DNA of 44,975 nucleotides. It comes from a virus. Below the pieces are notes generated by a model that was given only the letters and a program-made list of their open reading frames with translations, did no database searches and was not told the DNA's origin. Each line of letters opens with the position of its first letter. The stretch's first letter is position 1. A program made the position numbers and the translations under genes. This document shows positions 22,063-44,975 of the stretch, one piece after another. The stretch lies in the UHGV virus genome UHGV-0285350; one strand, given 5' to 3'.

Positions 22063-22341
22063 ATGAAGATTGAACAAGTCGGAATGGCAGCTTTCAGGCA
22101 ACAGGCTGAAAGCGGTGGCGTGGATGAGTTCGTCGTGCAGCGGTTCGGTGGTGTGTATCACCTCTTCGCTGTGAATCGCCGCGCCGGGGTGTCCTATTTT
22201 CTACAGGAACGCCGTGGCGATTACAAGACGTGGCTGTCTCTTGACCGTGCCGCCGCGTTCCTGTCGGGGATTGGTGTTTCACGTTTTACCGTGCGTTTTG
22301 AGGATAACAAACATGCTGAAAAAGATGATCGGGGCCATTAA
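22063..22341 (+). CDS. hypothetical protein
   Basis: ORF in track (22027..22341); start ambiguous (ATG 22027 inside palindrome, or ATG 22063); no clear SD for either. Confidence 0.35.
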   Translation: MKIEQVGMAAFRQQAESGGVDEFVVQRFGGVYHLFAVNRRAGVSYFLQERRGDYKTWLSLDRAAAFLSGIGVSRFTVRFEDNKHAEKDDRGH

Positions 22342-22708
22342 AGCCGGTCAGGCATATCTGGGGTGGGATGATGCTCTTTATCGCCAGACACTGGTCCGCC
22401 TGACAGGTAAAACCAGCACCACACGCTGCAATCTCGATGAACTGCGCATCATCCGGGAATACATGCACGAACAGGGATTCCCGCGCAAGGCACCCGCTGG
22501 TAAAGGTCGCCGCCCTCGTGTTGCAATGAGCAGAAAATCAGTATTATCCAAAATTGAAGCGTTGCTGGCTGATGCCGGTCGTTCCTGGGCGTATGCAGAA
22601 GGACTGGCATCTCACATGTATAAGCAACATGTGATCGAATGGCTGACGGATGATCAACTGTTTGGGGTGATGGTGGCGCTGGTTAAAGATTCAAGGAGAC
22701 GTAAATGA
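22313..22708 (+). CDS. gemA: GemA-like protein (Mu gp16 / DUF1018 family)
   Basis: MLKKMIGAIKAGQAYLGWDDALYRQTLVRLTGKTSTTRCNLDELRIIREYMHEQGF matches the Mu GemA/gp16 pattern; ATG after GAGGA. Confidence 0.7.
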   Translation: MLKKMIGAIKAGQAYLGWDDALYRQTLVRLTGKTSTTRCNLDELRIIREYMHEQGFPRKAPAGKGRRPRVAMSRKSVLSKIEALLADAGRSWAYAEGLASHMYKQHVIEWLTDDQLFGVMVALVKDSRRRK

Positions 22709-23043
22709 AAAAACTGTTATTACTTATTCTGGCTTTATGTTTTACAGGGATATCCCATGCTTCTGATTCAGAGGAAGATTTGATCAAAAAAACATTACAG
22801 GGCGATTATCAGGCACAACGTAATCTGGCTTATTCATACATGAATGGCTGGGATGATATTTCAAAGGATACCATTAGAGGATGTGCTCTCAGGAAGGTTA
22901 TTCTCTTAACACAAGCCCAAGCTGACATTGGCGATTATGGAAATGAAGCCATAGATTGTCGAAAAGTGCATCCAACAGATAACCAGAAAGTATGGGAGTA
23001 TGTCAGAGGATACCTGGTGTTAATAAACGAGAATAAAAAATAA
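22705..23043 (+). CDS. hypothetical secreted protein (signal peptide), AT-rich moron-like gene
   Basis: MKKLLLLILALCFTGISHA signal peptide; local AT-richness; followed by strong terminator. Confidence 0.55.
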   Translation: MKKLLLLILALCFTGISHASDSEEDLIKKTLQGDYQAQRNLAYSYMNGWDDISKDTIRGCALRKVILLTQAQADIGDYGNEAIDCRKVHPTDNQKVWEYVRGYLVLINENKK

Positions 23044-23055
23044 TATGAACAAAAA

Positions 23056-23080
23056 CCTTCGCAAACGCGGAGGTTTTTTA
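23056..23080 (+). terminator. rho-independent terminator (ccttcgc-aaac-gcggagg then tttttt)
   Basis: Hairpin and U-run read from sequence immediately after stop of 22705..23043. Confidence 0.6.
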
Positions 23081-23084
23081 TGGT

Positions 23085-23113
23085 CTGTACAGGCGATCAT
23101 GTATGGCTATAAT
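23085..23113 (+). promoter_or_regulatory. candidate promoter for Mor/C-family gene (-10 TATAAT at 23108-23113; weak -35 CTGTAC)
   Basis: Consensus -10 hexamer about 30 nt upstream of the 23143 ATG; -35 is poor, compatible with an activator-dependent promoter. Confidence 0.35.
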
Positions 23114-23142: not shown

Positions 23143-23610
23143 ATGCAGACCTTCAGTGAAACAGATCTTCGCGATGCGCAGGCACTGCTGCCCGACTCCG
23201 TGCAGCAACTGATTAGCGTGATTGGCTTCCCCGCTCTGACCCGGTTGATTCGTTCTTTTGGTGGTGTGACGTTAAGTGGTAAAACCGGCGCACACGCCGA
23301 ACGCACCGGCGGTGTCCATGCCCTGTTACATGACGTGCTGACCGAAGACGAAATCAACAAACTGATCCGCTTTCTTGGCGGCGCACCGTTTTACATTCCC
23401 CGTTGCGATCATGCTTTACGTGCCCTGCGTAACACCCGTTTTATGGCTGATTTACAGCGGCATCTCAGGGACGGATTCTCACATCGGCAGGCGCTGGCAC
23501 AGCTTTGTCCCCGTTACGGGATTTCAGACCGGTACGCATGGCAACTGATACACCGACGACAAAAACAGACTTCGCTGAAAAGCCCCACCCAGGTGGGGCT
23601 TTTTGATTAA
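23143..23610 (+). CDS. Mor/C-family transcriptional activator of phage middle/late genes
   Basis: C-terminal HTH ...LAQLCPRYGISDRYAWQLIHRRQK typical of the Mu Mor/C family; cannot tell whether this is the Mor or the C equivalent. Confidence 0.7.
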   Translation: MQTFSETDLRDAQALLPDSVQQLISVIGFPALTRLIRSFGGVTLSGKTGAHAERTGGVHALLHDVLTEDEINKLIRFLGGAPFYIPRCDHALRALRNTRFMADLQRHLRDGFSHRQALAQLCPRYGISDRYAWQLIHRRQKQTSLKSPTQVGLFD

Positions 23611-24096: not shown

Positions 24097-24489
24097 ATGT
24101 CTGAACCCTTATCAGGCGGCGGAGCTGTGGCAGTCACCATCGGTGGTGCCAGTGTGTTTGGCCTTCTCACCAATACCGATTTCGGGGTCGTGGTGGGCGC
24201 GTTTGCCGGGGCGCTTTTTGTTGTCACGCAGCAGAAAGAAATCCCGGTCTGGCGAATGGCTATCCACCTGCTCGTCGCGTTTGTGGTTGGCGTTCTGGGG
24301 GCTGGCGTGGCTGCGTCACTGATGCAGTGGCTGACCCACTACAACGACAAGCCACTCGATGCATTGTGTGCGGTCGGTGTCTCGGCGTTATCCATCAAGA
24401 TACTGACCTTTCTTTATCAACAGGAAATTTCATCGCTGTTCGGCCTGTTTTCCAGACTGCGCGGCGGAGGGGGTGGAAATGGAAAGTAG
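24097..24489 (+). CDS. holin-like membrane protein (3-4 TM, Gly-rich tail)
   Basis: ATG 7 nt after GGAG; hydrophobic segments; first gene of lysis cassette. Confidence 0.5.
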   Translation: MSEPLSGGGAVAVTIGGASVFGLLTNTDFGVVVGAFAGALFVVTQQKEIPVWRMAIHLLVAFVVGVLGAGVAASLMQWLTHYNDKPLDALCAVGVSALSIKILTFLYQQEISSLFGLFSRLRGGGGGNGK

Positions 24490-24775
24490 CCTTGCCGGTA
24501 TCGTGAACGTCTGGCTGTGTCTCGCCATTGTGCTGGGGTTGTTTGTGTATCGCCGCCACGGTGCGGCGCATGAGCCGATGATTACCTGGCTGGCGTACTG
24601 GCTGATGCTCGGCTACATCATCATCCCGTTCCGCTGGCTGTCCGGTACATACACGCACTCCAGCTGGCTGGTTGTGGCGCTGAATCTGGTTTTCTGTGCG
24701 CTTATCGTGTGGGCGCACGGGAATTTGTCAAAAATCCTTTCGTTACTGAGGCATCCACATGAAATCAAAAGATGA
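24479..24775 (+). CDS. lysis-associated membrane protein (holin/antiholin-like, 2-3 TM)
   Basis: ATG after GGAGGGGGTGG; hydrophobic segments; overlaps neighbours. Confidence 0.5.
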   Translation: MESSLAGIVNVWLCLAIVLGLFVYRRHGAAHEPMITWLAYWLMLGYIIIPFRWLSGTYTHSSWLVVALNLVFCALIVWAHGNLSKILSLLRHPHEIKR

Positions 24776-25304
24776 CATTTTTGATGAAGTCCTGGGCAAA
24801 GAAGGCGGTTACGTCAATCACCCGGATGATAAGGGCGGCCCGACCAAATGGGGCATTACGGAAAAAGTCGCCCGTGCCCACGGATACCGTGGCGATATGC
24901 GTGAGTTAACCCGCGAACAGGCGCTGGACATCCTTGAAGCCGATTACTGGTATGGCCCGCGATTTGACCAGGTAGCAGCGTTATCCCCTGATATTGCCGC
25001 AGAGCTGTGTGATACCGGTGTGAATATGGGGCCATCCGTGGCGTCCAGAATGCTCCAACGCTGGCTGAACGTTTTCAACCTGCGCGGCAGGCTGTACCCG
25101 GATATGGACGCAGACGGACGCATCGGACCTCGTACCATCAGCGCATTGCGCGCCTTCCTGAATAATCGCGGTCAGGACGGTGAACGGGTGATGTTGACAG
25201 CCCTGAACTGCACGCAGGGTAACCGCTATCTGGAGCTGGCAGAGAAACGCGAGGCTAACGAATCGTTTGTTTATGGCTGGCTGAAGGAGCGCGTGGTGGT
25301 ATGA
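24759..25304 (+). CDS. endolysin (GH108-type N-domain with EGGY motif plus peptidoglycan-binding C-domain)
   Basis: LGKEGGYVNHPDDKGGPTKWGIT matches the GH108 signature; C-terminal region resembles a PG-binding domain. Confidence 0.8.
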   Translation: MKSKDDIFDEVLGKEGGYVNHPDDKGGPTKWGITEKVARAHGYRGDMRELTREQALDILEADYWYGPRFDQVAALSPDIAAELCDTGVNMGPSVASRMLQRWLNVFNLRGRLYPDMDADGRIGPRTISALRAFLNNRGQDGERVMLTALNCTQGNRYLELAEKREANESFVYGWLKERVVV

Positions 25305-25810: not shown

Positions 25811-26017
25811 GTGAGCATTATCAGATTTACAGAATACAGAGGTTCAGGAGGTGCTGGCGCTGTCATGGTGCTCGCTGAACGCATCACCCATTTTTACCGT
25901 CAGTACGGTACACATGATGGCACGGTCATTGAACTGGATACCGGGAAAAACGTGTTCGTTCTTGAAAATCCCGACGAAGTTCAGCGCAGGATTGAACAGG
26001 CTCAGAAGGACACTTAA
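25811..26017 (+). CDS. hypothetical protein
   Basis: GTG start; stop overlaps next ATG (TAATG). Confidence 0.45.
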   Translation: MSIIRFTEYRGSGGAGAVMVLAERITHFYRQYGTHDGTVIELDTGKNVFVLENPDEVQRRIEQAQKDT

Positions 26018-26517
26018 TGGCGTGGTCACAGGATATCAGGGACAAAGTCCGTAACGGGTACATCTTTGACCAGCTTCCGCTGGATATCGTCGCCATGAAG
26101 TACGCCGTACCGCACGATACCGCGCGGCGCTGGAAAACGCAGGCAATGAAGAACGGCGACGACTGGGACAAGCTGCGGGCCGCGCACGCGCTCGCCGGTG
26201 ACGGGCTGGAAAGTGTCGCCCGCACCGTGCTTATCAGTCTGGTGGTGAAGTGTCAGACGACGCTTGAGCGGCTGAACCAGAACCCGGACATCCCGCCGCA
26301 GGAGTCCGTCGAACTGCTGGCGAGTCTGTCTGACAGTCTCAGTAAGGCGGTGGCCAGCAGTAAAAAAATCCTGCCGGAAACCGACCGGCTCGCCACGGCA
26401 CTGGAAGTGGTGCAGCGGCTCGGCGCGTTCATCAAGGAGCGTCACCCGGCACAGTATGCCCCGTTTCTTGAGGTGCTCGAAGGCTTCGCTAAAGAGCTTG
26501 AGGATAATTTCAGTTAA
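26017..26517 (+). CDS. terminase small subunit-like protein (Mu gp27 position)
   Basis: Immediately upstream of terminase large subunit; N-terminal HTH-like region; positional plus weak motif evidence. Confidence 0.55.
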   Translation: MAWSQDIRDKVRNGYIFDQLPLDIVAMKYAVPHDTARRWKTQAMKNGDDWDKLRAAHALAGDGLESVARTVLISLVVKCQTTLERLNQNPDIPPQESVELLASLSDSLSKAVASSKKILPETDRLATALEVVQRLGAFIKERHPAQYAPFLEVLEGFAKELEDNFS

Positions 26518-26551
26518 CCACAGCGGCCCGGTTTTCCGGGCCGTCTGATAT

Positions 26552-28210
26552 TTGTATACCAGGTGTGACGTGGCAAAACGTAAACTTTCCATTAAAGAGT
26601 TTCAGAGAAGCTTACAGGAATACATCGCCAACCTCCGCCAGACCATCGAGGCTGAATGTCTGGGGTTCGATGTTAACCCGCAGGCCACACAGGCCCGTCG
26701 GGCGGCAGTCTGCGACCCGGTGACGGGCTACGATTATTTTGTCGAAAACTATTTCCCGCATTACGTCCGCAACCCGGCAAAAAGCGAGCTGCATAAATAC
26801 CTGTTCAGCCGTCTGCCACAGGTTGTGGCAAGCCCTGACCCGGAGAACGACGCCATCGCCGCGCCCCGTGGTGAAGCAAAATCCACGCTGGTGACGCAGC
26901 TGTTTACCCTGTGGGCCATTATCCGGGCCATTAAGCATTACCCGGTCATCATTATGGACAGTATCGACCAGGCTTATCCGATGCTGGAAGCCATCAAGGC
27001 TGAACTGGAATTTAACCCCCGTTTAAAAAACGATTTCCCGGAAGTGTGCGGGCAGGGTCGCGTCTGGCGTATGGGGACCATCGTCACGGCCAACAATATC
27101 AAGGTGACCGTTGCCGGTAGTGGTAAAAAACTGCGTGGTCTGCGCCACGGCCCGTACCGTCCTGACCTGGTTATCCTCGACGACATCGAGAATGACGAGA
27201 TGGTGCGTAACCCGGAGCAGCGCGACAAGCTGCACGACTGGCTCACTAAAACCGTGATGCCGCTGGGTGAGGCTGGCGGTAAAACCGATATTATTTATAT
27301 CGGGACCATCCTGCATTACGACTCCGTGCTGTCGCGCACGCTGAATAACCCGATGTGGAAAACAGCCCGCTTTAAGGCTGTTATTCAGTGGCCTGCCAAC
27401 ATGAAGCTGTGGGACGAGTGGGAAGAACTCATCCGCAACAAACAGCCGGAAGCGGCGGAGGCACTTTACCGGCAGAACGAAGCCGAGATGCTCGCCGGGT
27501 CAGTGGTGTCATGGGCGGCGCGCCCCCTGCTGGCACTGATGAAAATCCGTGTCCGTGACGGTCATGACACCTTTGATTCTGAATACCAGAACGACCCGGT
27601 CAGCGGTGAAGACGCGCTGTTTGCGGGCTGCATTAAGTTCTGGGTTAACCGTCTTGATGAATGGGTGTTTTATGGTGCGGTTGACCCCAGTCTCGGGAAG
27701 AAAAACAAAAACCGTGACCCGTCGGCCATTCTCGTGGGGGGCTTTAACCGCTTTACCGGCATTCTGGATGTGGTTGAAGCCGATATCCGCCGACGTCTGC
27801 CAAACAAACTTATCGAAGACGTGATTAAGTATCAGCGGGAATATCACTGCCTGTGCTGGTCGTTTGAGTCCGTCCAGTTTCAGGAGTTTCTGCGTACCGT
27901 GCTGGTTGAGCGTTCGGCAGCGCTGGGCGTGCCGGTTCCGGCGCTGCCGGTCATCCCGCTGGAGGATAAGGCACTGCGTATCGAATCCCTTCAGCCGCAT
28001 ATGGCCAACGGCCTGATTCGTATCAGCCACACACATCAGACGCTGATTGACCAGCTGCGCCACTACCCCAAAGCTGACCACGATGATGGCCCGGACTGTC
28101 TGCACATGCTGTGGACGCTGGCGGTTTCGCGTAGCGCAAAATTTCAGATACACACCCCACGCAGCAGCGGGCGTGACCGTGGCGGGCGTTTTGGTTCAGG
28201 AGGATGGTAA
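26552..28210 (+). CDS. terminase large subunit
   Basis: ATPase motifs APRGEAKST (Walker A-like) and VILDD (Walker B) with C-terminal nuclease-like region; 552 aa; start codon uncertain (TTG 26552 or GTG about 26567). Confidence 0.85.
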   Translation: MYTRCDVAKRKLSIKEFQRSLQEYIANLRQTIEAECLGFDVNPQATQARRAAVCDPVTGYDYFVENYFPHYVRNPAKSELHKYLFSRLPQVVASPDPENDAIAAPRGEAKSTLVTQLFTLWAIIRAIKHYPVIIMDSIDQAYPMLEAIKAELEFNPRLKNDFPEVCGQGRVWRMGTIVTANNIKVTVAGSGKKLRGLRHGPYRPDLVILDDIENDEMVRNPEQRDKLHDWLTKTVMPLGEAGGKTDIIYIGTILHYDSVLSRTLNNPMWKTARFKAVIQWPANMKLWDEWEELIRNKQPEAAEALYRQNEAEMLAGSVVSWAARPLLALMKIRVRDGHDTFDSEYQNDPVSGEDALFAGCIKFWVNRLDEWVFYGAVDPSLGKKNKNRDPSAILVGGFNRFTGILDVVEADIRRRLPNKLIEDVIKYQREYHCLCWSFESVQFQEFLRTVLVERSAALGVPVPALPVIPLEDKALRIESLQPHMANGLIRISHTHQTLIDQLRHYPKADHDDGPDCLHMLWTLAVSRSAKFQIHTPRSSGRDRGGRFGSGGW

Positions 28211-28213
28211 TTA

Positions 28214-29809
28214 ATGGCACAGCTTGTTGATATTTACGGACGCCCGCTGAAACGTGAGGCACTCAAAACCACGCAGTCGGTCAGAGTGGCGGAACGGCTG
28301 CGCATTTATCCAGACCACCCGTCGCGTGGTCTGAACATCAGAAAACTGCCGCGCATTCTGGAAGCCGCCGAACGCGGTTATCTTCCGGCGCAGGCGATGC
28401 TGTTTGCGGATATGGAAGAACGTGATGGCCATCTGTTCGCCGAGATGGAAAAGCGCAAAAAAGCATTGCTGACGCTGGACTGGTCGGTGGAGCCGCCCCG
28501 CAATGCCTCGAAGGCAGAAAAGGAGCTGGCCGCCGCCGTGGATGAATGGCTGCACGGTATCCCGGACATGGAGGACATCATCCTCAACGGGATGAGCAGT
28601 GTCGGTTACGGTTTCAGCTGTCAGGAAATCAGCTGGGCGTTCGTGGATAAAACGTGGTTACCGGATGCGGTGACGCTGCGCCCGCATAACTGGTTCATTA
28701 CCCTGCCGGAACACAATGACGAACTCCGCCTGGATGACGGCGGTCGCGGGGAAGATGGTAAAGACGGTTCCGCACTGTGGCCGTTCGGCTGGCTGGTTCA
28801 TCGTTACAACGCCCGGTCGGGGTTTCTGGGTTCATCCGGCCTGTTCCGCGTACTGGTCTGGCCGTATCTGTTTAAAAACTTTGCGCTGCGTGATATGGCG
28901 GAATTTCTGGAGATTTACGGCCTTCCGGCGCGCATTGCCTACTATGCACAGGGCACCAGTGACGAGGACCGGGACAACATTCTCGAAGCCCTGGTTAATC
29001 TGGGCCATGAAGCGGTGGCAGCCCTGCCGCAGGGTAACGAAATCGAGTTCAAGGAAGCCGCGTCCGGCGGGCCGGAGGCGTTCATGTCGATGGTGGAATG
29101 GGCGGAGCGTACCACCTCAAAAGTGATTCTGGGCAGTACGCTGACCAGCCAGGCCGACGGTAAAACCTCCACCAACGCACTGGGTAATGTCCATAACGAG
29201 GTCCGGCACGACATTCTGACCGCTGATGCACGCCAGCTGTCCGGCATGTTCAGCAGTCTGATACAGATGATGGCCAGTCTCAACGGCTGGCAGGATATCC
29301 CGCCACGCCGTCTGCCGCGTCTGGTGTTTGATGTGCAGCAGGAAGCCGACATTAAGGGGGTGGCGGAAGCCGTCAGTGTGCTGGTCAACAATGTGGGGAT
29401 GAAGGATATCCCGGTGTCGTGGGTGCGCAAAAAAACCGGTATCCCCACCCCGAAAGACGGCGAAGAGGTACTGGTTCCGGTGGCACAGCGTCTCCCTGTG
29501 CAGGCCGGTCTCAGCCAGCTGCGTGAGCGGATGAATGTTGCCGCACTCAGTCAGCAGGACAACGGGGAGGACGACCCGGCACAGCGTGCCATCGACCGGG
29601 CAGAGCTTCCGGCAGGGGCCATCGCGCAGGGGATGAACGAACTGGTGGCCCCACTGGTGCAGGCCATACAGGAAGGCCGGGATGCGGACGAGGCCATGAA
29701 CGTACTGGCGGAAGCGTGGCCGGAGCTGCCGGATGACACGCTGCGGCAGTTGCTGACACAGGCATTCTTTGTGGCTGATATCTGGGGGCGACTGAATGCC
29801 GACAGCTGA
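28214..29809 (+). CDS. portal protein (Mu gp29/H-like)
   Basis: 531 aa directly after the large terminase; N-terminal MAQLVDIYGRPLKREALKTTQ... resembles Mu-type portal family. Confidence 0.8.
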   Translation: MAQLVDIYGRPLKREALKTTQSVRVAERLRIYPDHPSRGLNIRKLPRILEAAERGYLPAQAMLFADMEERDGHLFAEMEKRKKALLTLDWSVEPPRNASKAEKELAAAVDEWLHGIPDMEDIILNGMSSVGYGFSCQEISWAFVDKTWLPDAVTLRPHNWFITLPEHNDELRLDDGGRGEDGKDGSALWPFGWLVHRYNARSGFLGSSGLFRVLVWPYLFKNFALRDMAEFLEIYGLPARIAYYAQGTSDEDRDNILEALVNLGHEAVAALPQGNEIEFKEAASGGPEAFMSMVEWAERTTSKVILGSTLTSQADGKTSTNALGNVHNEVRHDILTADARQLSGMFSSLIQMMASLNGWQDIPPRRLPRLVFDVQQEADIKGVAEAVSVLVNNVGMKDIPVSWVRKKTGIPTPKDGEEVLVPVAQRLPVQAGLSQLRERMNVAALSQQDNGEDDPAQRAIDRAELPAGAIAQGMNELVAPLVQAIQEGRDADEAMNVLAEAWPELPDDTLRQLLTQAFFVADIWGRLNADS

Positions 29810-30962: not shown

Positions 30963-31510
30963 GCAGCGGTAAACTGGATATTAAGATTGATTTAAGCGCG
31001 TATAACACCACGCTGGGGAAACTGATTCGTTCCGTGAAGGACCGGCGCGACCTGATGACGGCACTTGCAGGCTCCATGCTGGATGCGGTTGAGACTAACT
31101 TTGAACAACAGGGTCGCCCGAAATGGATGGGCTGGAGTCCGGCTTATGCGAAGCGACGCGGCCCCGGGCAAATCCTTCAGAAGTCCGGGCGACTGGCTGC
31201 CAGTATCCGCTCTGCGGTTAACAATAACGAGGCCACGGTCGGGACAAACGTCCGTTATGCCCGTATCCACAACGAAGGCGGCGAAATCCGCCATCAGGCA
31301 CGGACGCAGAACCTGTATTTTAAACAGTACAAAAACGGCAGCGTCAGCAGCCGTTTTGTGAAAAAGCGCAACAGTAATTTTGTGCAGAGTGCAACGGTCG
31401 GAGCGTATACGGTCAACATGCCCGCGCGCCCCTTCCTTCAGCTTGTGCAGGATGACATCGACGAGCTGGAGAACACCGCAAACCGCTATTTTGCGCGTGT
31501 GATTGACTGA
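30959..31510 (+). CDS. virion morphogenesis protein (Mu G-like)
   Basis: 183 aa, position and pattern consistent with Mu G family. Confidence 0.7.
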   Translation: MSSGKLDIKIDLSAYNTTLGKLIRSVKDRRDLMTALAGSMLDAVETNFEQQGRPKWMGWSPAYAKRRGPGQILQKSGRLAASIRSAVNNNEATVGTNVRYARIHNEGGEIRHQARTQNLYFKQYKNGSVSSRFVKKRNSNFVQSATVGAYTVNMPARPFLQLVQDDIDELENTANRYFARVID

Positions 31511-34492: not shown

Positions 34493-34495
34493 CCC

Positions 34496-35571: not shown

Positions 35572-35785
35572 GGCGGCTCCCGGGATGAAGTTCCCGATGG
35601 AGGATAACGCCCGGAAATACATCACCACGGAAGCGGTGACCGTTGAGAACACCGCTTATTACCGACACGCCGTTCAGGACGGTGACCTGATTCTGGTAAC
35701 TGAAGAGCCTGAAACGGCAGAACAGGATACCGGACCAGAAAAAACGAAGGTGAAGAAAGAGAAACAGGTGGATTCCGATGAGTGA
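35552..35785 (+). CDS. small protein preceding sheath (Mu gp38 position)
   Basis: 77 aa, overlaps neighbours. Confidence 0.5.
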   Translation: MTSMKVKAAPGMKFPMEDNARKYITTEAVTVENTAYYRHAVQDGDLILVTEEPETAEQDTGPEKTKVKKEKQVDSDE

Positions 35786-37199: not shown

Positions 37200-37211
37200 G
37201 GAGCGCGGTAA

Positions 37212-37586
37212 ATGTCCATTAAAGAATATGTCGGCTCGATTGTGCTGGAGGTGGACAGCCAGGAAATCGAGATCACCGACTTCGATGTTCAGATCAACAC
37301 CGGGCGAAAGCTGGTCAAGACCATGAACAAAACCGGCAGGGCCAAAGGCTTTGCCCGTGGCATTGCCACTTACGATATTTCTGTTTCGGCGGTTATCCCT
37401 GATACCAACGAGCCGGACTGGGAAAATCTGGAAGGTGTGAAAATCTCAATTTATCCGCTCAGCAACAGCGGCAAGCGCACCTCCTATCTGGACTGCTTCA
37501 CAGCTGAAGTTGGTGAGAAATACACCGTCGACAGTGAAGCGAAAATTGATATCAAAATGGCTGCACTCAGGAAGGTGACAGGATGA
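37212..37586 (+). CDS. tail tube protein
   Basis: 124 aa immediately after sheath. Confidence 0.75.
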   Translation: MSIKEYVGSIVLEVDSQEIEITDFDVQINTGRKLVKTMNKTGRAKGFARGIATYDISVSAVIPDTNEPDWENLEGVKISIYPLSNSGKRTSYLDCFTAEVGEKYTVDSEAKIDIKMAALRKVTG

Positions 37587-37966
37587 CTTTGATTAATACA
37601 CAGACCGGCGAACTGTCTGATGGCGTGGTATTTAACGGCACCGTTCATAAAAACTTTGAGCTGCGTCTGCCGGTCATGCGTGATAACGGACAGGCACTGG
37701 AAGAAACTGAAGAACGCTTTCAGACGGTGGACGGCTTCGCGGCGGATTATTACTACCGCTGTGCGGTGATGGCGGCAACGCTGGTCCGTCTGGGGGATAT
37801 TCCGCAGGAAGAACTGACGGCGGAGCTGTTGCACGACAACATGACGCCGGACGATTTTAATATTCTGCTGGCATCACGCAACGTCCTGAAGGTAAAGCGG
37901 AACGGCGGGAATCCCGGCTCGCCGGACTCCGGCTCGCAGTCCTCATCCTCGGGCGCTACGGAATAA
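37583..37966 (+). CDS. tail assembly chaperone
   Basis: 127 aa between tube and tape measure; -1 frame stays open across its 3' end (see 37981..38139). Confidence 0.65.
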   Translation: MTLINTQTGELSDGVVFNGTVHKNFELRLPVMRDNGQALEETEERFQTVDGFAADYYYRCAVMAATLVRLGDIPQEELTAELLHDNMTPDDFNILLASRNVLKVKRNGGNPGSPDSGSQSSSSGATE

Positions 37967-37980
37967 CCGAAGAGCAAATC

Positions 37981-38139
37981 ATGACCATGAGCCGTCCCGA
38001 GCTGGACGGCTGGCTTGCCGCCGTTGACAGACTGAACGGCGGCGGCTCAGGAAGGAAGGACACCTCACAGACCACCCGCCAGTCATTTAAATCCCTCAGA
38101 AAGAAACGCAGAAAAGGTAAGCAGAAAAATGGCCGGTAA
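37981..38139 (+). CDS. ORF in -1 frame relative to chaperone; probable frameshift extension or small independent gene
   Basis: -1 frame is open from about 37861 to stop at 38137-38139, overlapping the chaperone stop (37966) and the tape-measure start (38129); ATG at 37981. Confidence 0.4.
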   Translation: MTMSRPELDGWLAAVDRLNGGGSGRKDTSQTTRQSFKSLRKKRRKGKQKNGR

Positions 38140-40402
38140 TTTCAAAGTTGGCATGACCCTGACTGCGAAGGACGAAGCCTCGCAGGTTCTGGAAAAGGGA
38201 CAAAAACAGGTTATCAAAGCCACCGAAGGTGTAACAAAGGCAACCCGGAAGGCAGGCGCAGAGCAGAAGCGTACCGAGCAGGAAAGCGTTAACAGCACGA
38301 AAAAGGCCGCAAAAGAGATACAGCGTGCCGCCCGTGCCCGGGAAACGCTCGGTATTCGTGCAGAACGCGAGATCCGGCGTGAAATTTATCAGACGGTTGC
38401 CAGCTATAACCGTCTGGCCCGCGCCGGTTTTGAATCTGCGCAGGAGCAGGAACGTGCCATGCAGGCCACCCGGGAAAAAGCCCGGGCACTCAAGCGTGAA
38501 CTGGATGGCGTCACTCAGGCTCAGATGAAGATGGCGAAAACGCCCGTTATCCCTGAACCGGGGCGTTTTGCCCGTGCGGCTGCATTTGGCGGGAATGCCG
38601 TGACAACAGGTGGTGGTATTGCGGCAGGTGCTGCCATTATGGCGCAGCCGGTCAAAAAGCAGATGAGCTACGAACGCCAGCTGGCAATGATGGCCAATAC
38701 CGCCTTCAGTGATGGCGGGCTGGAGGGACGCAAAGCCGGTCTTGAGCAGATGAAAAGCAGCATCCGTAACGCGGTGACCTATGGTGGCGGCACAAAAGAG
38801 GATGCAGCCGAAACACTGGATGCCCTGCTGAAAGATGGCGGTATTTCATTTGACACAGCCAGCAAGTGGCTACCTGAACTGATGAAATACGCCACGGCTT
38901 CTGGTGCATCAGCGACAGACCTGGCTAATGTGATGCTTAAGGGCAAAAAGACCTTTGGATTCCGGGATGAAGATATTTCCACTGTCCTGAATATGGCGAT
39001 TGCGGCAGGAAAAGAAGGCAGCTTTGAACTGAACGATATGGCCCGCTGGTTATCCCAACAAATGGGATCTGCGTCAGCTGCGGGAATGAAAGGCAAGGAT
39101 GATTTCGTCAAGATTCTTGCGCTGAATGAAGCCGCCGCGATCACGGCTGGTAGCAGTGATGAAGCAGGGAATAACGTGGTTAACCTGCTGGCTAAACTGA
39201 CCAGCCATGATATTGAAACTGCGGCAAAGAGCATTGATTACAACGGTAAAGGGATTGATTTTTCAGGTACGCTGACTGAAGCGCGCAAGCATGGACTGGA
39301 TCCGATAGACGCGCTTTCCAGCCTGATAGATAAAATCGTTGCCAGCGATAAACGCTATCAGGAGTTGCAAAAGAAACTGTCATCTGCCCGGAATAAAGGT
39401 GAACAGACGGCTGTTTACGATTCGATGGCAAAACTCCTTGAAGGCTTTGGTGTCGGGAAACTGGTTGCAGACCGTCAGGCGTTGATGGCGTTGTTAGCCT
39501 ACCGTAACAACCCGGAATACCGTAAGAAGGTTGAAGACGCGATTAATCAGCAACGTACCCTGCCGGAAGGCCAGCGCGCGGGGGATGTTGATTTCAGATT
39601 CATATCCGGCCTCAATGATTTTAAAACCGAACAGGCTAAAAACACACTTGAATTTTCACAAATGGACAGCGTGAAAAAGCTGGCTGATGCGTCCGGTACT
39701 GTGGCCGATGCCATAAGCTGGGCGGGTGAAAAGTTTCCGGGGCTGACCACGGCAGTGGTGGGTGCCACGACTGCGATTGAAGCGATGACCGCAGCGGCTC
39801 TGACATGGGCCGGGATCAAAATCCTGACCGGGGGTAAACCTGGTGGCAAGGCTGGCGAGGTTGTCGGTGATGTCATTGAAAACACGGTCAAAAAAGGCAA
39901 AGGATTTAAAATCCCCGGCATTGCCGGTAGCCTGCTTTCTTTCGGTGGCACCGTTACGGCACTGGCCACCGCAACCAGCCCGGAAGAAGACGCCGCCGTC
40001 GAAGGAAGCGAAGAACGCTGGAAGCGCATCCGTGCCCGATACCCCCAGGAAATCATCGACGCTGCCCGTAAAAAATACCAGCCGTGGTGGCAGTTTGGGG
40101 AAGGCTACTCCACCGAAAACGAAGAGTGGTTGAGGCGCTGGGAGGAAGACAGGAAAAAAGCCGCAGCTGATGCCCTGCCATCACCGGCGCAGGTCAACAA
40201 AGCCGCCGGAAACACAACGCCTGAATCAGCATCAACGCAACCCGGACGCATCACCCAGCCGGAATACCTCACGCACTGGGGACCACCTGCCAGTCCCATA
40301 AATTTCACCACACAACTGGTGCTTGATGGTCAGGTCGTGGCGGAAGCGGTGAATAAATACAACCTTCAGGATGGTAACAGAGGCACGGGAGGAACTTACT
40401 GA
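38129..40402 (+). CDS. tail tape measure protein
   Basis: 757 aa, Ala/Gly/Lys-rich, long helical regions, C-terminal Gly-rich segments; position after chaperone. Confidence 0.85.
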   Translation: MAGNFKVGMTLTAKDEASQVLEKGQKQVIKATEGVTKATRKAGAEQKRTEQESVNSTKKAAKEIQRAARARETLGIRAEREIRREIYQTVASYNRLARAGFESAQEQERAMQATREKARALKRELDGVTQAQMKMAKTPVIPEPGRFARAAAFGGNAVTTGGGIAAGAAIMAQPVKKQMSYERQLAMMANTAFSDGGLEGRKAGLEQMKSSIRNAVTYGGGTKEDAAETLDALLKDGGISFDTASKWLPELMKYATASGASATDLANVMLKGKKTFGFRDEDISTVLNMAIAAGKEGSFELNDMARWLSQQMGSASAAGMKGKDDFVKILALNEAAAITAGSSDEAGNNVVNLLAKLTSHDIETAAKSIDYNGKGIDFSGTLTEARKHGLDPIDALSSLIDKIVASDKRYQELQKKLSSARNKGEQTAVYDSMAKLLEGFGVGKLVADRQALMALLAYRNNPEYRKKVEDAINQQRTLPEGQRAGDVDFRFISGLNDFKTEQAKNTLEFSQMDSVKKLADASGTVADAISWAGEKFPGLTTAVVGATTAIEAMTAAALTWAGIKILTGGKPGGKAGEVVGDVIENTVKKGKGFKIPGIAGSLLSFGGTVTALATATSPEEDAAVEGSEERWKRIRARYPQEIIDAARKKYQPWWQFGEGYSTENEEWLRRWEEDRKKAAADALPSPAQVNKAAGNTTPESASTQPGRITQPEYLTHWGPPASPINFTTQLVLDGQVVAEAVNKYNLQDGNRGTGGTY

Positions 40403-41751
40403 TGGGCTGGGCTGAAAACCTGCAAAACGCCTCCTTTCGCGGTGTGCAGTTTGAGGTGCTGAATACTGACGAACAAATCAGCCGCGACCATGCGGTCTAT
40501 GAATACCCTTTTGTTGACGGGGCAGATTTGCACGACCTCGGACGCAAGGCGCGACCGTTCCGCATGACGGCGTTCCTGTGGGGCGATGACTATGAATATA
40601 AACTCGGAAAACTGACCGCCGTCCTGGATAAAGGCGGCGATGGTGAACTGATTCATCCGGTTTATGGCTCTGTGCCGTCGGTGATTGTGACCGGCTACAG
40701 CATCCGCCATGACGCAGAAAGCCCGGACAGCTGCACCATTGACATGAGTTTTCTGGAGAACCGCACCGGCAGCGCGTTGTTCAGCACCCCGTTACCGGAG
40801 CTGTTCGCGCAACAGTTGTTTGATGAACTGGATGCTTTACAGACACAGTTAAGCGAATTTTTTGACGCTGTTACGTCCCCTTTAAAGACCATTAACAGCG
40901 TGATTAAAAAAATCCAGACGGTGCGTGCCACGCTGGTGAATACCCTGCTGACGTTCAAAAGTGATTCATTCTCCACAGTCGATAATGTTGTGTCACTGGC
41001 CAGCGAACCCGGAAAGTTTATCGGCGGGCTGGCAGAGGTGCTGGAAATCCACACGTCAGATGTCGGGCACGCGGTGCCGGTGCTGGCGCGTACTGATTCC
41101 GCCACCACGACCGGACTGACCGGAGAAGACAGCGTCGCCAGTTCTGCGACCGTGATGACCTGCTGGAATGAGGTGATGGCTGATATGGATGAGCTGGTCG
41201 CGCTGCCGGTCGCACTGGTCAGCGGTGATAAAACGCCGTCTGTGGCACTTCCGCCGGATGCGTCCGTGGAAGACGTGCAGGACGTGAAAGCGGCTTATGC
41301 GGTTCTGGCGGCCTCAGAGCTGGCCAGCGTGGCAACAGCGATACTGTCCGATGAGGCCCAGTCAGAACAGCTTATACCGGCGGATATCGGGCGACTGGTC
41401 GGGGATGTGCGCACCCGCTTACAGGCAGCCATTACGCTGTTCCGTGAGCGCTATGAAGGCGAACGTGAACGGATAACCGAAACCGCATCACCGCTGGGGC
41501 TGATGTACCCGGAAATCATTCAGAGCATGAAGAACGTGGCGGCATCCGTGCAGGATGTTGGCCTGCTGGTTCTGTCACGCCGCCCACCGCTGACGCAGAA
41601 ACAGGTGCAGGCGGACAGCTGTCTGCTGTTGCTGGCGTGGCAGTGGTACGGTGATTACAGCCGTGCGGCAGAGCTGCAACGTCTGAACCCGCAGCTGCGT
41701 GACCCGAACAACATAACCGCCGGGATGGTGATTAATGCCTACGCAAAATAA
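40402..41751 (+). CDS. DNA circulation protein (Mu N-like)
   Basis: 449 aa directly after tape measure; N-terminus MGWAENLQNASFRGVQFEVL... Confidence 0.75.
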   Translation: MGWAENLQNASFRGVQFEVLNTDEQISRDHAVYEYPFVDGADLHDLGRKARPFRMTAFLWGDDYEYKLGKLTAVLDKGGDGELIHPVYGSVPSVIVTGYSIRHDAESPDSCTIDMSFLENRTGSALFSTPLPELFAQQLFDELDALQTQLSEFFDAVTSPLKTINSVIKKIQTVRATLVNTLLTFKSDSFSTVDNVVSLASEPGKFIGGLAEVLEIHTSDVGHAVPVLARTDSATTTGLTGEDSVASSATVMTCWNEVMADMDELVALPVALVSGDKTPSVALPPDASVEDVQDVKAAYAVLAASELASVATAILSDEAQSEQLIPADIGRLVGDVRTRLQAAITLFRERYEGERERITETASPLGLMYPEIIQSMKNVAASVQDVGLLVLSRRPPLTQKQVQADSCLLLLAWQWYGDYSRAAELQRLNPQLRDPNNITAGMVINAYAK

Positions 41752-42931
41752 CGAAGACAAAATCAGCCTGGTCATTGCCGGAAGGTCGCATTCTGACTGG
41801 AGCAGTTATCGTATTGACAGCGATTTCCTGAAAGCCGCCGACGGCTGGCACCTTCAGCTGGGACTGCCTGAAAAGGTGTTCCCGGCGGATATCGTCCGGG
41901 GTGCGCCGGTCCGTTTGCAGGTGGGAGACGAGACGGTGCTCAGTGGTCGCGTTGACAGCGTGCGCCGCAGTGTATCCCGTCAGAGCTGCACGCTGACCCT
42001 GTCCGGGCGTGATGATGCCGCCATCCTGGTGGACTGTGCCGCACCGGTGTTCAGCGCCAACCAGCTGACGCTGGACGAGGTCATTGACAGGATTGTCAGA
42101 CCGCTGGGGATACAGCGCATCCGCATTCAGGCATCCGGTGTGTCACGTAATGACAAAGTCGTTATTGAGCCGGGGATGCGTGCGTGGGATGCACTGGCCA
42201 AAGCTGCCGCCGGTCGCGGCTTATGGCCGTGGTTTGAGCCTGACGGGACGCTGGTTGTGGGTGGCCCTGACTACACCACCACGCCGGTGGATACGCTGAT
42301 TCTGAAGCTGAACGGCACCGGGAACAACGTGATGGAGCTGGACGATACCCGGTCCATTAACGGCTGTTTCTCCGAACTTACTGTGCTGGCCCAGAGCCAC
42401 GCCCGCCGCGCAGACAGCAAGAAACCGGTGGCCGTGGTGCCGCTGGATATCTGGAACGAGGACGGCAGCGTGCGCACATTGTCCGGGCAGGACAGCGGTA
42501 ATACGGACAGTGGCCAGACAGGCATTCATAACATGAAAGCCGTGGCCACCGACCCCACCGTGGATTATTATCGCCCGCAGATTATCACCCAGGGCGACAC
42601 CAGCAATCTGGAGCAGGTGAGCTGGCGCGCAAAAAAAATGATGAGTGATGCCCGCCTGTCGGGGCTGGATATCGTCGCACTGGTTGCAGGTCATCGCACG
42701 GCAGATGGTGTTCTGTGGCAGCCCGGCCAGCGGGTGCGGATTGTCAGCGAACTCCACGGCATTGATGCCATATTTTTCCTGATGGGGCGTGAGTTCAGCG
42801 GAGGCCGGAACGGGCAGACAACCCGGCTTCGCTTTAAGGAGGACGGCGTGTGGATACCTGACGCCTTCCCGCGCGAGAAGAAACGCCATCACCGCAGGGG
42901 CGTCGCCATTGTTAAGGTCTGGGAGAAATGA
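41735..42931 (+). CDS. baseplate hub / late-control-D-family tail protein (Mu P-like)
   Basis: 398 aa, position between N and spike. Confidence 0.75.
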   Translation: MPTQNNEDKISLVIAGRSHSDWSSYRIDSDFLKAADGWHLQLGLPEKVFPADIVRGAPVRLQVGDETVLSGRVDSVRRSVSRQSCTLTLSGRDDAAILVDCAAPVFSANQLTLDEVIDRIVRPLGIQRIRIQASGVSRNDKVVIEPGMRAWDALAKAAAGRGLWPWFEPDGTLVVGGPDYTTTPVDTLILKLNGTGNNVMELDDTRSINGCFSELTVLAQSHARRADSKKPVAVVPLDIWNEDGSVRTLSGQDSGNTDSGQTGIHNMKAVATDPTVDYYRPQIITQGDTSNLEQVSWRAKKMMSDARLSGLDIVALVAGHRTADGVLWQPGQRVRIVSELHGIDAIFFLMGREFSGGRNGQTTRLRFKEDGVWIPDAFPREKKRHHRRGVAIVKVWEK

Positions 42932-43581
42932 TGTGGGACAAGGTTAATCAGCGCGTACAGCAGGCACTGGCCGCCGTTCGCCAGGCATTCAGGGTGGTGA
43001 CCGGTACGGTGGACAGTTCGACCAAAGTACAGCTACTTCAGCTGAACGGGCTGGCAGGCGAACAGCTGGATGGTGCGGAGTATTTTCAGCATTACGGCCT
43101 CACCACATCCCCGCCGCCCGGCTCAATGGGTATTGCCGTTCCGCTGAATGGCAATACCTCCCATACCGTCATCGTGGCCACAGAGCACGGCGCATATCGC
43201 CTGACGGAACTGAAACCCGGGGAAGTGGCCCTGTATACCGATGAAGGCGCGAAAATCGTACTGAAGCGCGGACGGGTTATTGAGCATGAATGTGACGTTT
43301 ATCGCGTGAAATGCAAACGCTACGAGGTTGAGGCAGAGGAGAACGCCGCGTTCACGACACCGTTACTGACAGCCAGTGACAGGCTGACGGTGGAAGGTAA
43401 AATCACCGGCAACGGTGGCATGGCCATCAGTGGGGGCAAGAAATACGCCGCCACCTTTGAAGGCAACATCAACCATGTGGGTGGTGTGATTACCTCCGTT
43501 GACGTCACCATTAATGGCGTTAAAATCGGAACGCACAAACACCCGACCCCACACGGCATGTCTGACACGCCGGTTAATTAA
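42928..43581 (+). CDS. baseplate spike protein (Mu gp45 / gpV-like)
   Basis: 217 aa; N-terminal OB-fold-like region; C-terminal HKHPTPHG resembles the His-rich spike apex motif. Confidence 0.75.
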   Translation: MMWDKVNQRVQQALAAVRQAFRVVTGTVDSSTKVQLLQLNGLAGEQLDGAEYFQHYGLTTSPPPGSMGIAVPLNGNTSHTVIVATEHGAYRLTELKPGEVALYTDEGAKIVLKRGRVIEHECDVYRVKCKRYEVEAEENAAFTTPLLTASDRLTVEGKITGNGGMAISGGKKYAATFEGNINHVGGVITSVDVTINGVKIGTHKHPTPHGMSDTPVN

Positions 43582-43634
43582 GTGCTGAACACCCTCACCT
43601 GATTCTTACCTGTCCATGCTGCCAGACTGGCGGC

Positions 43635-43985
43635 ATGGACCAGACGATTTCACCTGCAACCGGCGACTACGAACGCCGCCGGATTTATACACTCCATAAC
43701 GCGGTTTATCTGCGACTGGCGACACCGCTTGGCAGTTACTGGGCGGATGCGTCGCTGGGGTCACGCCTGCACGAACTGAAGCGGGAAAAAGACGTTTCCC
43801 GTGTTCACAGGCTGGCGGCGCAGTATGCCAGCCAGGCACTTCAGCCACTGCTTGATGACGGGCGGGCGACAGCAATTACCGTTGACACGAAAGCGGGCCA
43901 GCGCGGCTGGCTGTTGCTGTTAATCACCGTCACGGATAACGCGGGCACACCGCAGACGTTTGAACACCCTGTGAGGATTATGTAA
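43635..43985 (+). CDS. baseplate protein (Mu gp46 / gp25-like)
   Basis: 116 aa after spike. Confidence 0.7.
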   Translation: MDQTISPATGDYERRRIYTLHNAVYLRLATPLGSYWADASLGSRLHELKREKDVSRVHRLAAQYASQALQPLLDDGRATAITVDTKAGQRGWLLLLITVTDNAGTPQTFEHPVRIM

Positions 43986-44975
43986 TGCCGTTTCCTGTTC
44001 CGGGCGTTGCTGAAAACACAGAACGCCAGCTACGTGATATCGCTAACGCCCTGCCGGGAGAAACCATCGACACCGGCGCTGACAGCGATTACCGCATTCG
44101 TGCAAATGCCGTATCCGGCGTGGCGGAGGGGCTTTTTATGCATCAGGGATGGATCCTCCGTCAGGTGTTTCCTGACACGGCAGACCCTGAATATCTGGAG
44201 TTGCACTGCCGCACGCGCAATGTTTTTCGTAAAAAAGCAACAACCTCATCCGGTCAGGCCGTGATTACCGGCACACCCGGTAAGACGCTGCCAGCCGGTG
44301 CGGAAATTCGTGGTGAAGGTGTCAGCGTGGCCACCATAGCAGACTGCACCATCGGTGATGAAGGCAGCGCAGAGGTGACGGTAAAAAGCACCGCCACGGG
44401 TGCACAGATGAATGCATCCACGACGCAGACGGCAACGCTGGTCAGCCCGCCTGAAGGCATCAACAGCACGGTGACGATTAAATCCCTGACCGGCGGAACG
44501 GACAGGGAAAGTGACGCCGACCTGCTGGCGCGTTATCTGGATATTCTGCGCAGGCCGCCCGCTGGCGGTAACAAATATGATTACAAACGCTGGGCGCTGG
44601 AAGTGGATGGCGTTACGTCTGCATATGTGGAGCCATTGCGCAGAGGGAAAGGTACTGTTGATGTGGCCATTACGTCAGCCAATGACCTCCCCTCGCAGGA
44701 ACTGATCAATGCCGTGCTGGCACATATTGAGGAAGTCCGCCCGGTCACAGCGAAAGACACGATGGTACTGGCCCCGACGAAAAAAGCCGTTGATTTCATT
44801 GTCCGGGTAAAAACCAGCGGCCTGACCGTTGAGCAAATAAAACCGCAGATAACTGGCGTTATCACGGATTTTATGAACCGACTGGAGCCGGGGCAGGAAT
44901 TAATTATTTCACAGCTGGAAACACAGATTTCATTAATTTCCGGTGTCAGTGACCGGCGAATCGTTACGCCAGCAG
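43985..44975 (+). CDS. baseplate J-like protein (Mu gp47-like), 3' end outside window
   Basis: ATG overlaps gp46 stop (TAATG); frame open to window end (about 330 codons); my own translation MPFPVPGVAENTERQLRDIANALPGETIDTGADSDYRIRANAVSGVAEGLFMHQGW... Confidence 0.7.
   Translation, partial: MPFPVPGVAENTERQLRDIANALPGETIDTGADSDYRIRANAVSGVAEGLFMHQGWILRQVFPDTADPEYLELHCRTRNVFRKKATTSSGQAVITGTPGKTLPAGAEIRGEGVSVATIADCTIGDEGSAEVTVKSTATGAQMNASTTQTATLVSPPEGINSTVTIKSLTGGTDRESDADLLARYLDILRRPPAGGNKYDYKRWALEVDGVTSAYVEPLRRGKGTVDVAITSANDLPSQELINAVLAHIEEVRPVTAKDTMVLAPTKKAVDFIVRVKTSGLTVEQIKPQITGVITDFMNRLEPGQELIISQLETQISLISGVSDRRIVTPA

Follow-up and report, generated by a model that had tools for sequence, protein, structure and literature searches.

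How a Mu-type late region comes to lie in a stretch of DNA that holds no Mu-type transposase is the question raised by the window, that is, the whole stretch of 44,975 nt analyzed here. The initial annotation had described a Mu-order late block (22.3-45.0 kb, gemA to gp47) in DNA lacking c, ner, A and B, and had offered three explanations: a mosaic non-transposing phage with a Mu-type virion, a rearranged or defective Mu-like prophage, or a phage with its replication module to the right of the window. Judged from its sequence, the window is instead a part of a D6/P1-type phage-plasmid fused to a Mu-like transposable prophage, of which only the late half is present. These two parent elements are unrelated to each other, and each is a temperate element described before. 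The apparent "Mu without transposase" is an effect of the junction, whether it arose by assembly or by recombination, and neither origin would yield a new class of phage. Each arm falls within a known family as an ordinary member, and the novelty is confined to one unverified junction in a metagenome contig. The case calls for caution, as the striking pattern of Mu virion genes without a transposase dissolves once the arms are matched separately to finished genomes.

Table 1. Features of the window and the evidence by which they were recognized
Feature	Position	Strand	Evidence
D6-like (P1 subgroup 2) phage-plasmid arm: phage glnS 3' end, two DNA methyltransferases, RdgC/HrdC; P1 gene 5/6/24/7/25/26 baseplate and tail homologues; HigB/HigA pair, mat, simB-like gene, Ref, DUF4406, N6_N4 methyltransferase; Ea22, DUF4752, Ppp, DUF968/PdcB, PAPS reductase	1-21358	.	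Nucleotide identity, D6 annotation, Pfam
159-aa Ea22-like gene, D6 type	21161-21640	+	Exact protein on 6 contigs
Shared ead/Ea22 C-terminal segment and two small ORFs	21359-21980	+	Homologous in both parental families, 89-100% identity
58-aa ORF of promiscuous cassette	21640-21816	+	Exact-protein matches in several phage types
Narrowest crossover interval, 29 bp	21682-21710	+	Mismatch maps against best available parents
60-aa ORF, Mu-type allele	21813-21995	+	Exact protein found in Mu-like prophages only
End of Mu-like early region: 104-aa gene, GemA (22313-22708), 112-aa protein	22027-23043	+	Pfam GemA 3.7e-18
Mor-family middle/late transcription activator	23143-23610	+	Pfam Mor 1.5e-7
Lysis cassette: two holins and GH108 endolysin	24097-25304	+	Pfam
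Head and packaging: DUF1804 (26017-26517), TerL, Mu portal, F, G, protease/scaffold I, virion structural protein, T	26017-34148	+	
Neck, tail and baseplate: FluMu_N, gp36, gp37, DUF2635, sheath, tube, chaperone, tape measure, N, P, gp45, gp46, gp47	34151-44975	+	

The right arm holds the late half of a Mu-like genome

Searches with Pfam and PHROGs confirmed the gene order reported for the right arm, GemA and Mor being followed by lysis, head and contractile-tail genes in the order of Mu. PHROGs searches identified the large terminase, the tail tube and the chaperone of tail assembly. The head genes matched the Pfam families Portal_Mu, Phage_Mu_F, virion morphogenesis G, Mu-like protease I and gpT (T being the major head protein) and the neck and tail genes matched FluMu_N, Gp36, Gp37, DUF2635, the sheath and tape-measure families, DNA_circ_N (N), GpP/gp44 domains (P), Gp45, GP46 and Baseplate_J (gp47), the last one cut by the end of the window after 991 of about 1080 nt. 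The 112-aa protein has a signal-peptide-like N-terminus, and a promoter-like site (23086-23113) precedes mor. Where the initial annotation had read "Mor/C", one Mor-family gene is indeed present, but a separate C gene is missing; similarly, the block is real, but Mu-specific DNA begins at about 21.7-22.0 kb and not at 22313. At this boundary, GC content changes from 0.44-0.52 on the left to 0.52-0.61 on the right. The late ORFs have the lengths of those in intact, functional-looking relatives and no decay was seen; the truncation is therefore not old.

The absence of the left-end genes was also confirmed. In tblastn searches of the window with four proteins of the close relative L011 (repressor, Ner, MuA and MuB), neither transposition genes nor left-end early regulators of the repressor/Ner type were matched (best E-value of 0.39, and of 0.5 for MuA and MuB alone). 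The conserved left end of this Mu-like family, TGTGGGGTAGTGATCAATTCTGGGCGG, was not found in the window even when 3 mismatches were tolerated, and the right end lies outside it; the terminal transposase-binding repeats (TG...CA ends, short target duplication) of a transposable phage are thus not present.

In contrast, all relatives with enough upstream sequence showed a canonical layout. Between about 21.7 and 45.0 kb, the window is 94-97% identical to a prophage family present in 55 of 5426 complete Escherichia coli genomes (95.5-96.9% in these 55 for window 26570-31510), at 57 places in total, with two 249-kb E. coli plasmids among the carriers. An intact prophage of this family resides on the F plasmid p1RM9976 of Escherichia albertii (NZ_CP043265.1, 153.5-188.7 kb; 94% identity to window 21795-44958), and further members, with gene order and ORF lengths as in the window, occur in E. 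coli GPEC349-628 and EPEC E2348/69. The first 7.5-9 kb of these relatives, missing in the window, comprise the left end, the repressor, a Ner-like gene, MuA (680 aa), MuB (297 aa), DUF3164 and DUF2786, MuA and MuB lying 5-9 kb upstream of gemA. Also missing from the window are an optional methyltransferase gene between DUF1804 and terL and the region after gp47, which in intact relatives consists of gp48-like and tail-fibre genes, fibre-assembly genes, a Gin-type invertase and the right end (...GCGAAGTTACA). The initial annotation had reasoned that MuA/MuB-like genes in canonical arrangement would make the left arm a separate island, and this is in effect what we observed: MuA and MuB were present at 38 of 38 GemA loci in IMG/VR having at least 6.8 kb of upstream sequence, and repressor, Ner, MuA and MuB stood upstream at all 19 other places that encode the exact 104-aa or 112-aa protein. 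D6 markers were found at none of 43 GemA loci in IMG/VR. The absence of the repressor, ner, A and B is thus due to the position of the join, immediately upstream of gemA in the Mu-like genome, and is not a trait of the phage lineage.

As for the Mu-type ends and 5-bp duplications proposed as a check, the ends are present in the relatives, whose left end adjoins six different flanking sequences. Both ends were available for two elements, and each had 4 matching flanking bases (AATT and TTTG), so that a 5-bp target duplication was not confirmed.

The left arm belongs to a D6-like phage-plasmid

The suggestion that the left part does not belong to a Mu genome was borne out by its identity with D6-like plasmids. 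From position 1 to about 21.7 kb, identity to phage D6 and to plasmid prophages of the D6 type is 96-99.9%. D6 (NC_050154 / MF356679) has been assigned to P1 subgroup 2 (PMC10879196) and exists as a circular plasmid in the prophage state (Gilcrease & Casjens 2018, as cited in PMC6799933). Its region 61213-82691 is collinear with window 1-21632, with the same genes in the same order (93-99.5% identity per segment; 98.4% overall, with 75% covered). Identity to ~90-kb E. coli and Salmonella plasmids was 95-97.5% and that to the closest plasmids and contigs 97.5-100%, the Logan contig SRR6060201_7828 being 100.000% identical over window 978-15230. What had been taken for a spike module at the left is actually the set of P1-type baseplate and tail homologues of D6. 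All 98 places of the D6-like arm in complete E. coli genomes were on plasmids, and none was chromosomal or linked to Mu genes.

The window differs from D6 in two accessory segments, 11014-12082 and 14760-16987, which carry P1-type genes in the window, as in other natural variants. Although the stretch 14500-17200 was absent as one contiguous piece from all PLSDB plasmids, an independent metagenome scaffold was collinear with window 12376-21106 (99.27% identity). Additional chimeric joints within the left arm were considered and rejected on this ground, the inner mosaic joints being natural. That these suspicious joints proved genuine is an observation to be set against an assembly error at the main junction.

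Similarity to D6 stops at its Ea22 cassette. Beyond this point D6 continues with DUF4014, pmgU, hot, humD, phd/doc and cre, whereas the window holds Mu-like DNA and continues into gemA. The replication, partition, C1-type immunity, head and sheath genes of D6 also fall outside the stretch matched by the window; for instance, its partition genes are at 57.1-59.7 kb and cre is at 89.9-91.0 kb.

The arms meet in a cassette common to both families

The switch lies within sequence that two otherwise separate elements have in common, the ead/Ea22 cassette, which has the same orientation in both parental families. Six contigs encode the exact 159-aa protein; five of them go on as a D6-like plasmid, with the D6 genes from DUF4014 to phd/doc, and only the ENA contig described below enters Mu genes. 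The exact 58-aa protein was found in Mu-like, lambdoid/P22-like and D6/P1-like phages and in a fourth phage type. The window matches the D6-like contigs L006-L009 without a mismatch over 20800 to 21710, beyond which they diverge. Its identical stretch with the Mu-like L020 covers 21682-21856, and those with the Mu-like L035, L031 and L034 run from 21812/21822 to 22047-22077. Homology to the D6 family ends at 21980. Direct transposition of a Mu-like phage into a plasmid was considered as the cause of the junction and rejected, as the junction is within homologous genes and not at a Mu end.

The junction is known from a single contig

The junction was found only in contig k119_1479 of ENA ERZ27298367, a MEGAHIT metagenome contig (we take "k119_" to be the naming style of this assembler) whose reads are probably those of SRR6060201, a run accession of which we found no mention in the literature. 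A 3-kb stretch spanning the junction had no record among the 5426 complete E. coli genomes, the junction was absent from PLSDB plasmids and INPHARED phages, and an exact two-anchor pattern gave 0 matches in GTDB genomes, IMG/VR and JGI metagenomes. The ENA record reaches 220 bp further left and the window 188 bp further right, so that two staggered versions of the contig exist, an observation that goes against a path switch of the assembler. A circular element of 44,975 bp was considered in view of these offsets and their 32-bp length difference and rejected, the agreement being an arithmetic tautology; no terminal overlap of the window was found, and homology to each arm reaches exactly to the window ends. 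Logan contigs of SRR6060201, with contig numbers above 160,000, were 100% identical to both arms, those among the matches listed covering 978-15230, 18219-21427 and 27524-31636. One k=31 Logan contig stops at 21427 (21398 + 29), which fits a second Ea22 allele that differs at 21397 and would merge there, and is indirect evidence in favor of a path switch.

Assembly path switch or recombinant molecule

On balance, we favor a join made in silico, by a path switch of MEGAHIT, over a real recombinant. The metagenome is complex, to judge from the contig numbers above 160,000, and its read set would hold at least two copies of the cassette (about 0.3-0.6 kb), which the assembler may have entered on the D6-like path and left on the Mu-like path. 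Exact runs shared by D6-like and Mu-like loci reach 132 bp and are at least 50 bp long in 103 of 240 pairs, and graph collapse is therefore feasible. Several points weigh against such a switch. A de Bruijn assembler normally breaks the contig at a repeat common to two complete genomes of even coverage. A contig running through would need the competing arms, D6-right and Mu-left, to be absent or pruned, which makes a real junction the simpler solution. Furthermore, the 29 bp over which both of the closest parents retrieved are identical to the window at the switch are fewer than k = 119, so that a chimera needs parents in the sample that share more than any retrieved pair, barring one (132 bp).

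The alternative, that the junction is a real molecule formed by homologous recombination in a cell that carried prophages of both kinds, the D6-like one as a plasmid, is a serious possibility to which we give less credence. A single crossover in the Ea22 cassette would integrate the plasmid into the prophage, in which case a reciprocal Mu-left/D6-right junction would exist elsewhere. Alternatively, a Mu-like phage would transpose into the plasmid, after which recombination between the directly repeated cassettes would delete c-ner-A-B and the intervening plasmid DNA. The cassettes, 89-100% identical over about 620 bp in the same orientation with exact runs of 50-132 bp, offer RecA or phage recombinases more than enough homology; the contig runs through them at k = 119, and the informative sites flanking the switch (21589-21628 and 21711) fit inside one 119-mer. 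In addition, the Mu-like family does transpose into plasmids, as seen for the E. albertii F plasmid and the two 249-kb E. coli plasmids, and the intact late genes fit a recent event. P1-like phage-plasmids integrated beside resident prophages have been documented (PMC10879196), which likewise counts against a path switch. On the other side, the junction is a singleton from a metagenome assembly, none of the 57 Mu-like places in complete E. coli genomes is truncated as in the window, and the plasmid-only distribution of the 98 D6-like places includes no parallel. The rearranged or defective Mu-like prophage of the initial annotation would require a junction that exists as a molecule, and the late genes show no decay. 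Such a recombinant would place a transposase-less Mu late region behind the rightward accessory operon of the plasmid. By analogy with Mu, packaging by the Mu-type terminase is improbable for a molecule without the Mu left end, and its DNA probably could not be packaged in this way.

We consider it improbable that the window represents a functional hybrid, namely a phage that replicates as a plasmid, does not transpose and builds a Mu-type head and tail, its Mor-dependent late genes being driven from the regulatory circuit of the phage-plasmid. The morphogenesis genes are all intact and in one orientation downstream of a D6-type operon, with the promoter-like site ahead of mor. However, D6's own P1-type baseplate and tail genes are still in the left arm, so that nothing was replaced, and a mosaic phage with a Mu-type virion finds no support, given the near-identity of that arm to a D6-like fragment and the single contig. 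The packaging site of phage Mu is at its left end; by analogy, that of the hybrid would be expected there as well, and the left end is absent from the window. Moreover, none of the collections searched held a second example, and arms 94-99.9% identical to ordinary family members show no co-adaptation. Should the junction be real and its product active, which we think very unlikely, a D6-like phage-plasmid would have captured a whole Mor-controlled Mu-like late module behind its accessory operon. Mu-type capsids and contractile tails would then be produced from a plasmid that has no transposase, for instance by a phage-plasmid with two particle kinds or by a virion supplier to another element.

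Finally, a complete Mu-like phage with its transposition and replication module past the right edge is hardly credible, since the only point in its favor is that the window ends inside gp47, after which the relatives have only fibre genes, the invertase and the right end, their MuA and MuB always being 5-9 kb upstream of gemA.

Comparison with known systems

The Mu-like arm has the gene order of phage Mu (Muvirus), gemA-mor-lysis-terminase-portal(H)-F-G-I-T-gp36-gp37 followed by sheath(L)-tube(M)-tape measure-N-P-gp45-gp46-gp47, and its genes match Pfam families named after Mu. Apart from the missing C gene, it differs from Mu in having no megablast-level nucleotide similarity to it, and Mu was not among the best 25 portal matches. 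Indeed, megablast against INPHARED gave no nucleotide match of the right arm to any isolated phage, D6 included. By portal protein, the closest isolated phages were Klebsiella phage ST405-OXA48phi1.1 (53% identity, full length) and the Pseudomonas D3112-like transposable phages MP22, JBD88a and MP29 (45%, full length), all of them distant in sequence. The D3112-like phages of Pseudomonas are siphoviruses, whereas the Mu-like arm of the window encodes a contractile tail.

If the junction is real, the window resembles the phage-plasmid/prophage recombinants and integrated P1-like elements described by Pfeifer & Rocha 2024 (PMC10879196), as a P1-type phage-plasmid and an integrative prophage would have exchanged DNA at homologous genes; it differs from them in that Mu-like partners are not mentioned there (0 occurrences of "Mu-like") and in that the junction is in no finished genome. 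It would then be one more case of the gene flow between phage-plasmids and integrative prophages already documented in that study, and the ead/Ea22 small-ORF cassette, seen in four phage types or more, would be a site at which phages of widely differing lifestyles recombine, which would be useful, though not surprising.

Two known elements joined in one cassette

The absence of c, ner, A and B is explained by the joining of two elements within a cassette that both carry, the ead/Ea22 cassette, in which a D6-like phage-plasmid part meets a Mu-like prophage part. Pfam and PHROGs matches, from which the gene order of the right arm was assigned, confirmed the Mu-type late order described in the initial annotation. 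The lysis genes (cf. the table) were followed by DUF1804, large terminase, Mu-type portal, F, G, protease I, a structural protein and the major head protein T, then by a FluMu_N protein, gp36, gp37, DUF2635, sheath, tube, chaperone and tape measure, and lastly by N, P, gp45, gp46 and gp47, which is cut by the window end. Of the proposed "Mor/C", the window has a single Mor-family gene; a C gene apart from it was not found. The reported lack of c/ner/A/B was borne out, as tblastn found no MuA, MuB, Ner or repressor homologues in the window (best E-value 0.39); nor was the conserved left end of the Mu-like family found there. The window yielded no tRNA genes, and its GC content rose near 23 kb from 0.44-0.52 to 0.52-0.61.

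Features of the window and of Mu-like relative loci
Feature	Sequence	Position	Remark
3' end of D6-type phage-encoded glutaminyl-tRNA synthetase gene	window	1-374	window start
HigB-like toxin, HTH_3 antitoxin	window	6302-7013	flanked by two P1-type baseplate gene blocks, as in D6
P1-type segment in D6-type backbone	window	15172-16770	242-aa N6_N4 methyltransferase, 60-aa Ea22 fragment, most of 232-aa gene
159-aa Ea22-like protein	window	21161-21640	
58-aa protein	window	21640-21816	
60-aa protein	window	21813-21995	
27-nt perfect palindrome	window	22014-22040	ACAGACCAAAACATATGTTTTGGTCTG
104-aa protein	window	22027-22341	
GemA	window	22313-22708	Pfam/PHROGs
112-aa protein	window	22705-23043	signal-peptide-like N-terminus; between GemA and Mor; PHROG 5882, function not known
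Mor	window	23143-23610	Pfam/PHROGs
Two holins, GH108 endolysin	window	24097-25304	Pfam/PHROGs
TTCTGGGCG end regions examined	L002	4906-5060; 40520-40595	
TTCTGGGCG end region examined	L003	3690-3850	
246-aa N6_N4 DNA methyltransferase	L002	17465-18205	between DUF1804 and terL; also in L012, L062, L064
246-aa N6_N4 DNA methyltransferase	L003	17409-18149	between DUF1804 and terL

The left arm matches D6-like phage-plasmids

Positions 1-21632 were 98.4% identical to Escherichia phage D6 over 75% of the length (single segments, 93-99.5%) and 95-97.5% identical to D6-like plasmids of about 90 kb from E. coli and Salmonella. In the D6 annotation, the arm comprises dmt-like methyltransferases, hrdC/RdgC, a toxin-antitoxin pair, mat, simB, ref, ppp, pdcB and Ea22, together with homologues of P1 baseplate and tail genes 5, 6, 24, 7, 25 and 26. 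Among 5426 complete E. coli genomes it occurred in 97, at 98 places, all on plasmids. The D6 prophage is a circular plasmid in the account of Gilcrease & Casjens 2018 cited in PMC6799933, and D6 has been assigned to P1 subgroup 2 among phage-plasmids (PMC10879196). Leftward, D6-like contigs continue into a full 553-aa glnS and partition genes. The contiguous P1-type segment arrangement was not found in any PLSDB plasmid; judged by sequence, the suspicious inner joints of this arm proved genuine, and an independent metagenome scaffold (ERZ28565265) was collinear with 12376-21106 at 99.27% identity.

The right arm matches Mu-like prophages

No isolated phage gave a megablast match to the right arm. 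An intact 35-kb Mu-like prophage that lies between traQ and trbB on E. albertii plasmid p1RM9976 was 94% identical to it, and prophages of 55 complete E. coli genomes, EPEC E2348/69 among them, were 95.5-96.9% identical. The late region also occurs on two 249-kb E. coli plasmids (NZ_OZ547097.1 and NZ_OZ547049.1); together with the F plasmid of E. albertii, these show plasmids to be among the insertion targets of the family. Wherever else the exact 104-aa or 112-aa protein occurred, the upstream layout was the same: a leftward repressor, a Ner-like HTH_35 gene, 680-aa MuA, 297-aa MuB, DUF3164, DUF2786, often DUF4752 and Ea22, and small ORFs before gemA; the chromosomal sites of these prophages differed. 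Of 43 IMG/VR loci encoding a GemA relative, none had D6 marker genes, and all 38 whose upstream DNA spanned 6.8 kb or more had MuA and MuB. Six different flanking sequences adjoin the left end of the family (TGTGGGGTAGTGATCAATTCTGGGCGG), the right end reads ...GCGAAGTTACA, and 4-bp flanks matched in both elements with both ends available, a clear 5-bp match not being seen in them. The motif TTCTGGGCG recurs at the ends of the family, with three copies on the left and inverted ones on the right, and these are probably transposase-binding sites. By these sequence features, the relatives are canonical transposable phages. Past gp47, nothing but tail-fibre genes and an invertase precedes their right end, so that the suggestion of a replication module beyond the right edge fails.

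Some relatives carry a methyltransferase gene between DUF1804 and terL that the window and other relatives lack. The place of the 112-aa gene holds other genes (120, 158, 167 or 174 aa) or none in relatives, and because of this variation it looks like a moron slot. The palindrome, 100% conserved in all Mu-like relatives, lies just past the end of D6 homology, runs into the beginning of the 104-aa gene and was called on the minus strand by a terminator scan.

The junction lies in the ead/Ea22 cassette

Mu-family homology begins at 21359 and D6-family homology ends at 21980, the overlap comprising the C-terminal part of the ead/Ea22-like gene and two small ORFs. The exact 159-aa protein was found in six contigs, five of which go on as D6-like plasmid, and the exact 60-aa protein in Mu-like prophages only. 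The exact 58-aa protein occurred in Mu-like, lambdoid/P22-like, D6/P1-like and a fourth phage type (spread seen at 21359-21995 and loci L020-L029), and the cassette is likely a recombination hot spot between lifestyles. The fourth type carries DUF3560 and MT-A70 genes.

In mismatch maps, D6-like contigs equalled the window at 20800-21710, the Mu-like locus L020 at 21682-21856, and other Mu-like loci from 21812/21822 to 22047-22077, which places the crossover, relative to the best available parents, at 21682-21710. When D6-like loci were compared with Mu-like ones in 240 pairs, exact common runs reached at most 132 bp, and 103 pairs shared at least 50 bp.

Origin of the junction

The only record found with the junction, ENA ERZ27298367 contig k119_1479 (45,007 bp; a name in MEGAHIT style), equalled the window over every stretch fetched and was the only contig with the exact tape-measure protein. 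It extends 220 bases further left and the window 188 further right, with identical overlap; thus two contig versions exist. Logan contigs of SRR6060201 were 100% identical to 978-15230, 18219-21427 and 27524-31636, so this is very probably the read set behind the contig, and contig numbering that passes 160,000 indicates a complex metagenome. The k=31 Logan contig stops at 21427 (21398 + 29); since all Mu-like and lambdoid Ea22 alleles differ from the window at 21397, this stop falls where a second allele would merge, and the reads therefore hold at least one further cassette copy.

We slightly favor an assembly path switch, in which the assembler would have made the join. The junction was found just once, in a complex metagenome with more than one cassette copy, both arms are pristine, and none of the 98 D6-like and 57 Mu-like places in finished genomes has it. 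It was found neither in the complete E. coli genomes nor in PLSDB plasmids or INPHARED phages, and the exact two-anchor pattern gave no match in GTDB genomes, IMG/VR or JGI metagenomes. A real homologous recombinant, either a cointegrate or the product of transposition into the plasmid followed by a deletion, is possible but less probable. In its favor, repeats of this kind usually make de Bruijn assemblers end a contig instead of passing through, the best parents available have no more than 29 bp in common where the sequence switches, the inner left-arm joints were real, and P1-like phage-plasmids integrated beside prophages are documented (PMC10879196). The hybrid Mu-virion phage of the initial annotation was set aside as very unlikely, because the D6 arm still has P1-type tail genes of its own, the Mu left end, where the packaging site lies in Mu and would be expected here, is missing, and no second example was found in the collections searched.

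Comparison with known systems

The gene-content observation thus stands, and its interpretation is supported in part; the two joined elements, a D6-like phage-plasmid and a Mu-like prophage, are both already known as judged from their sequences. By portal protein, the isolated phage nearest to the Mu-like arm was Klebsiella phage ST405-OXA48phi1.1 (53%), followed by Pseudomonas D3112-like transposable phages (45%).
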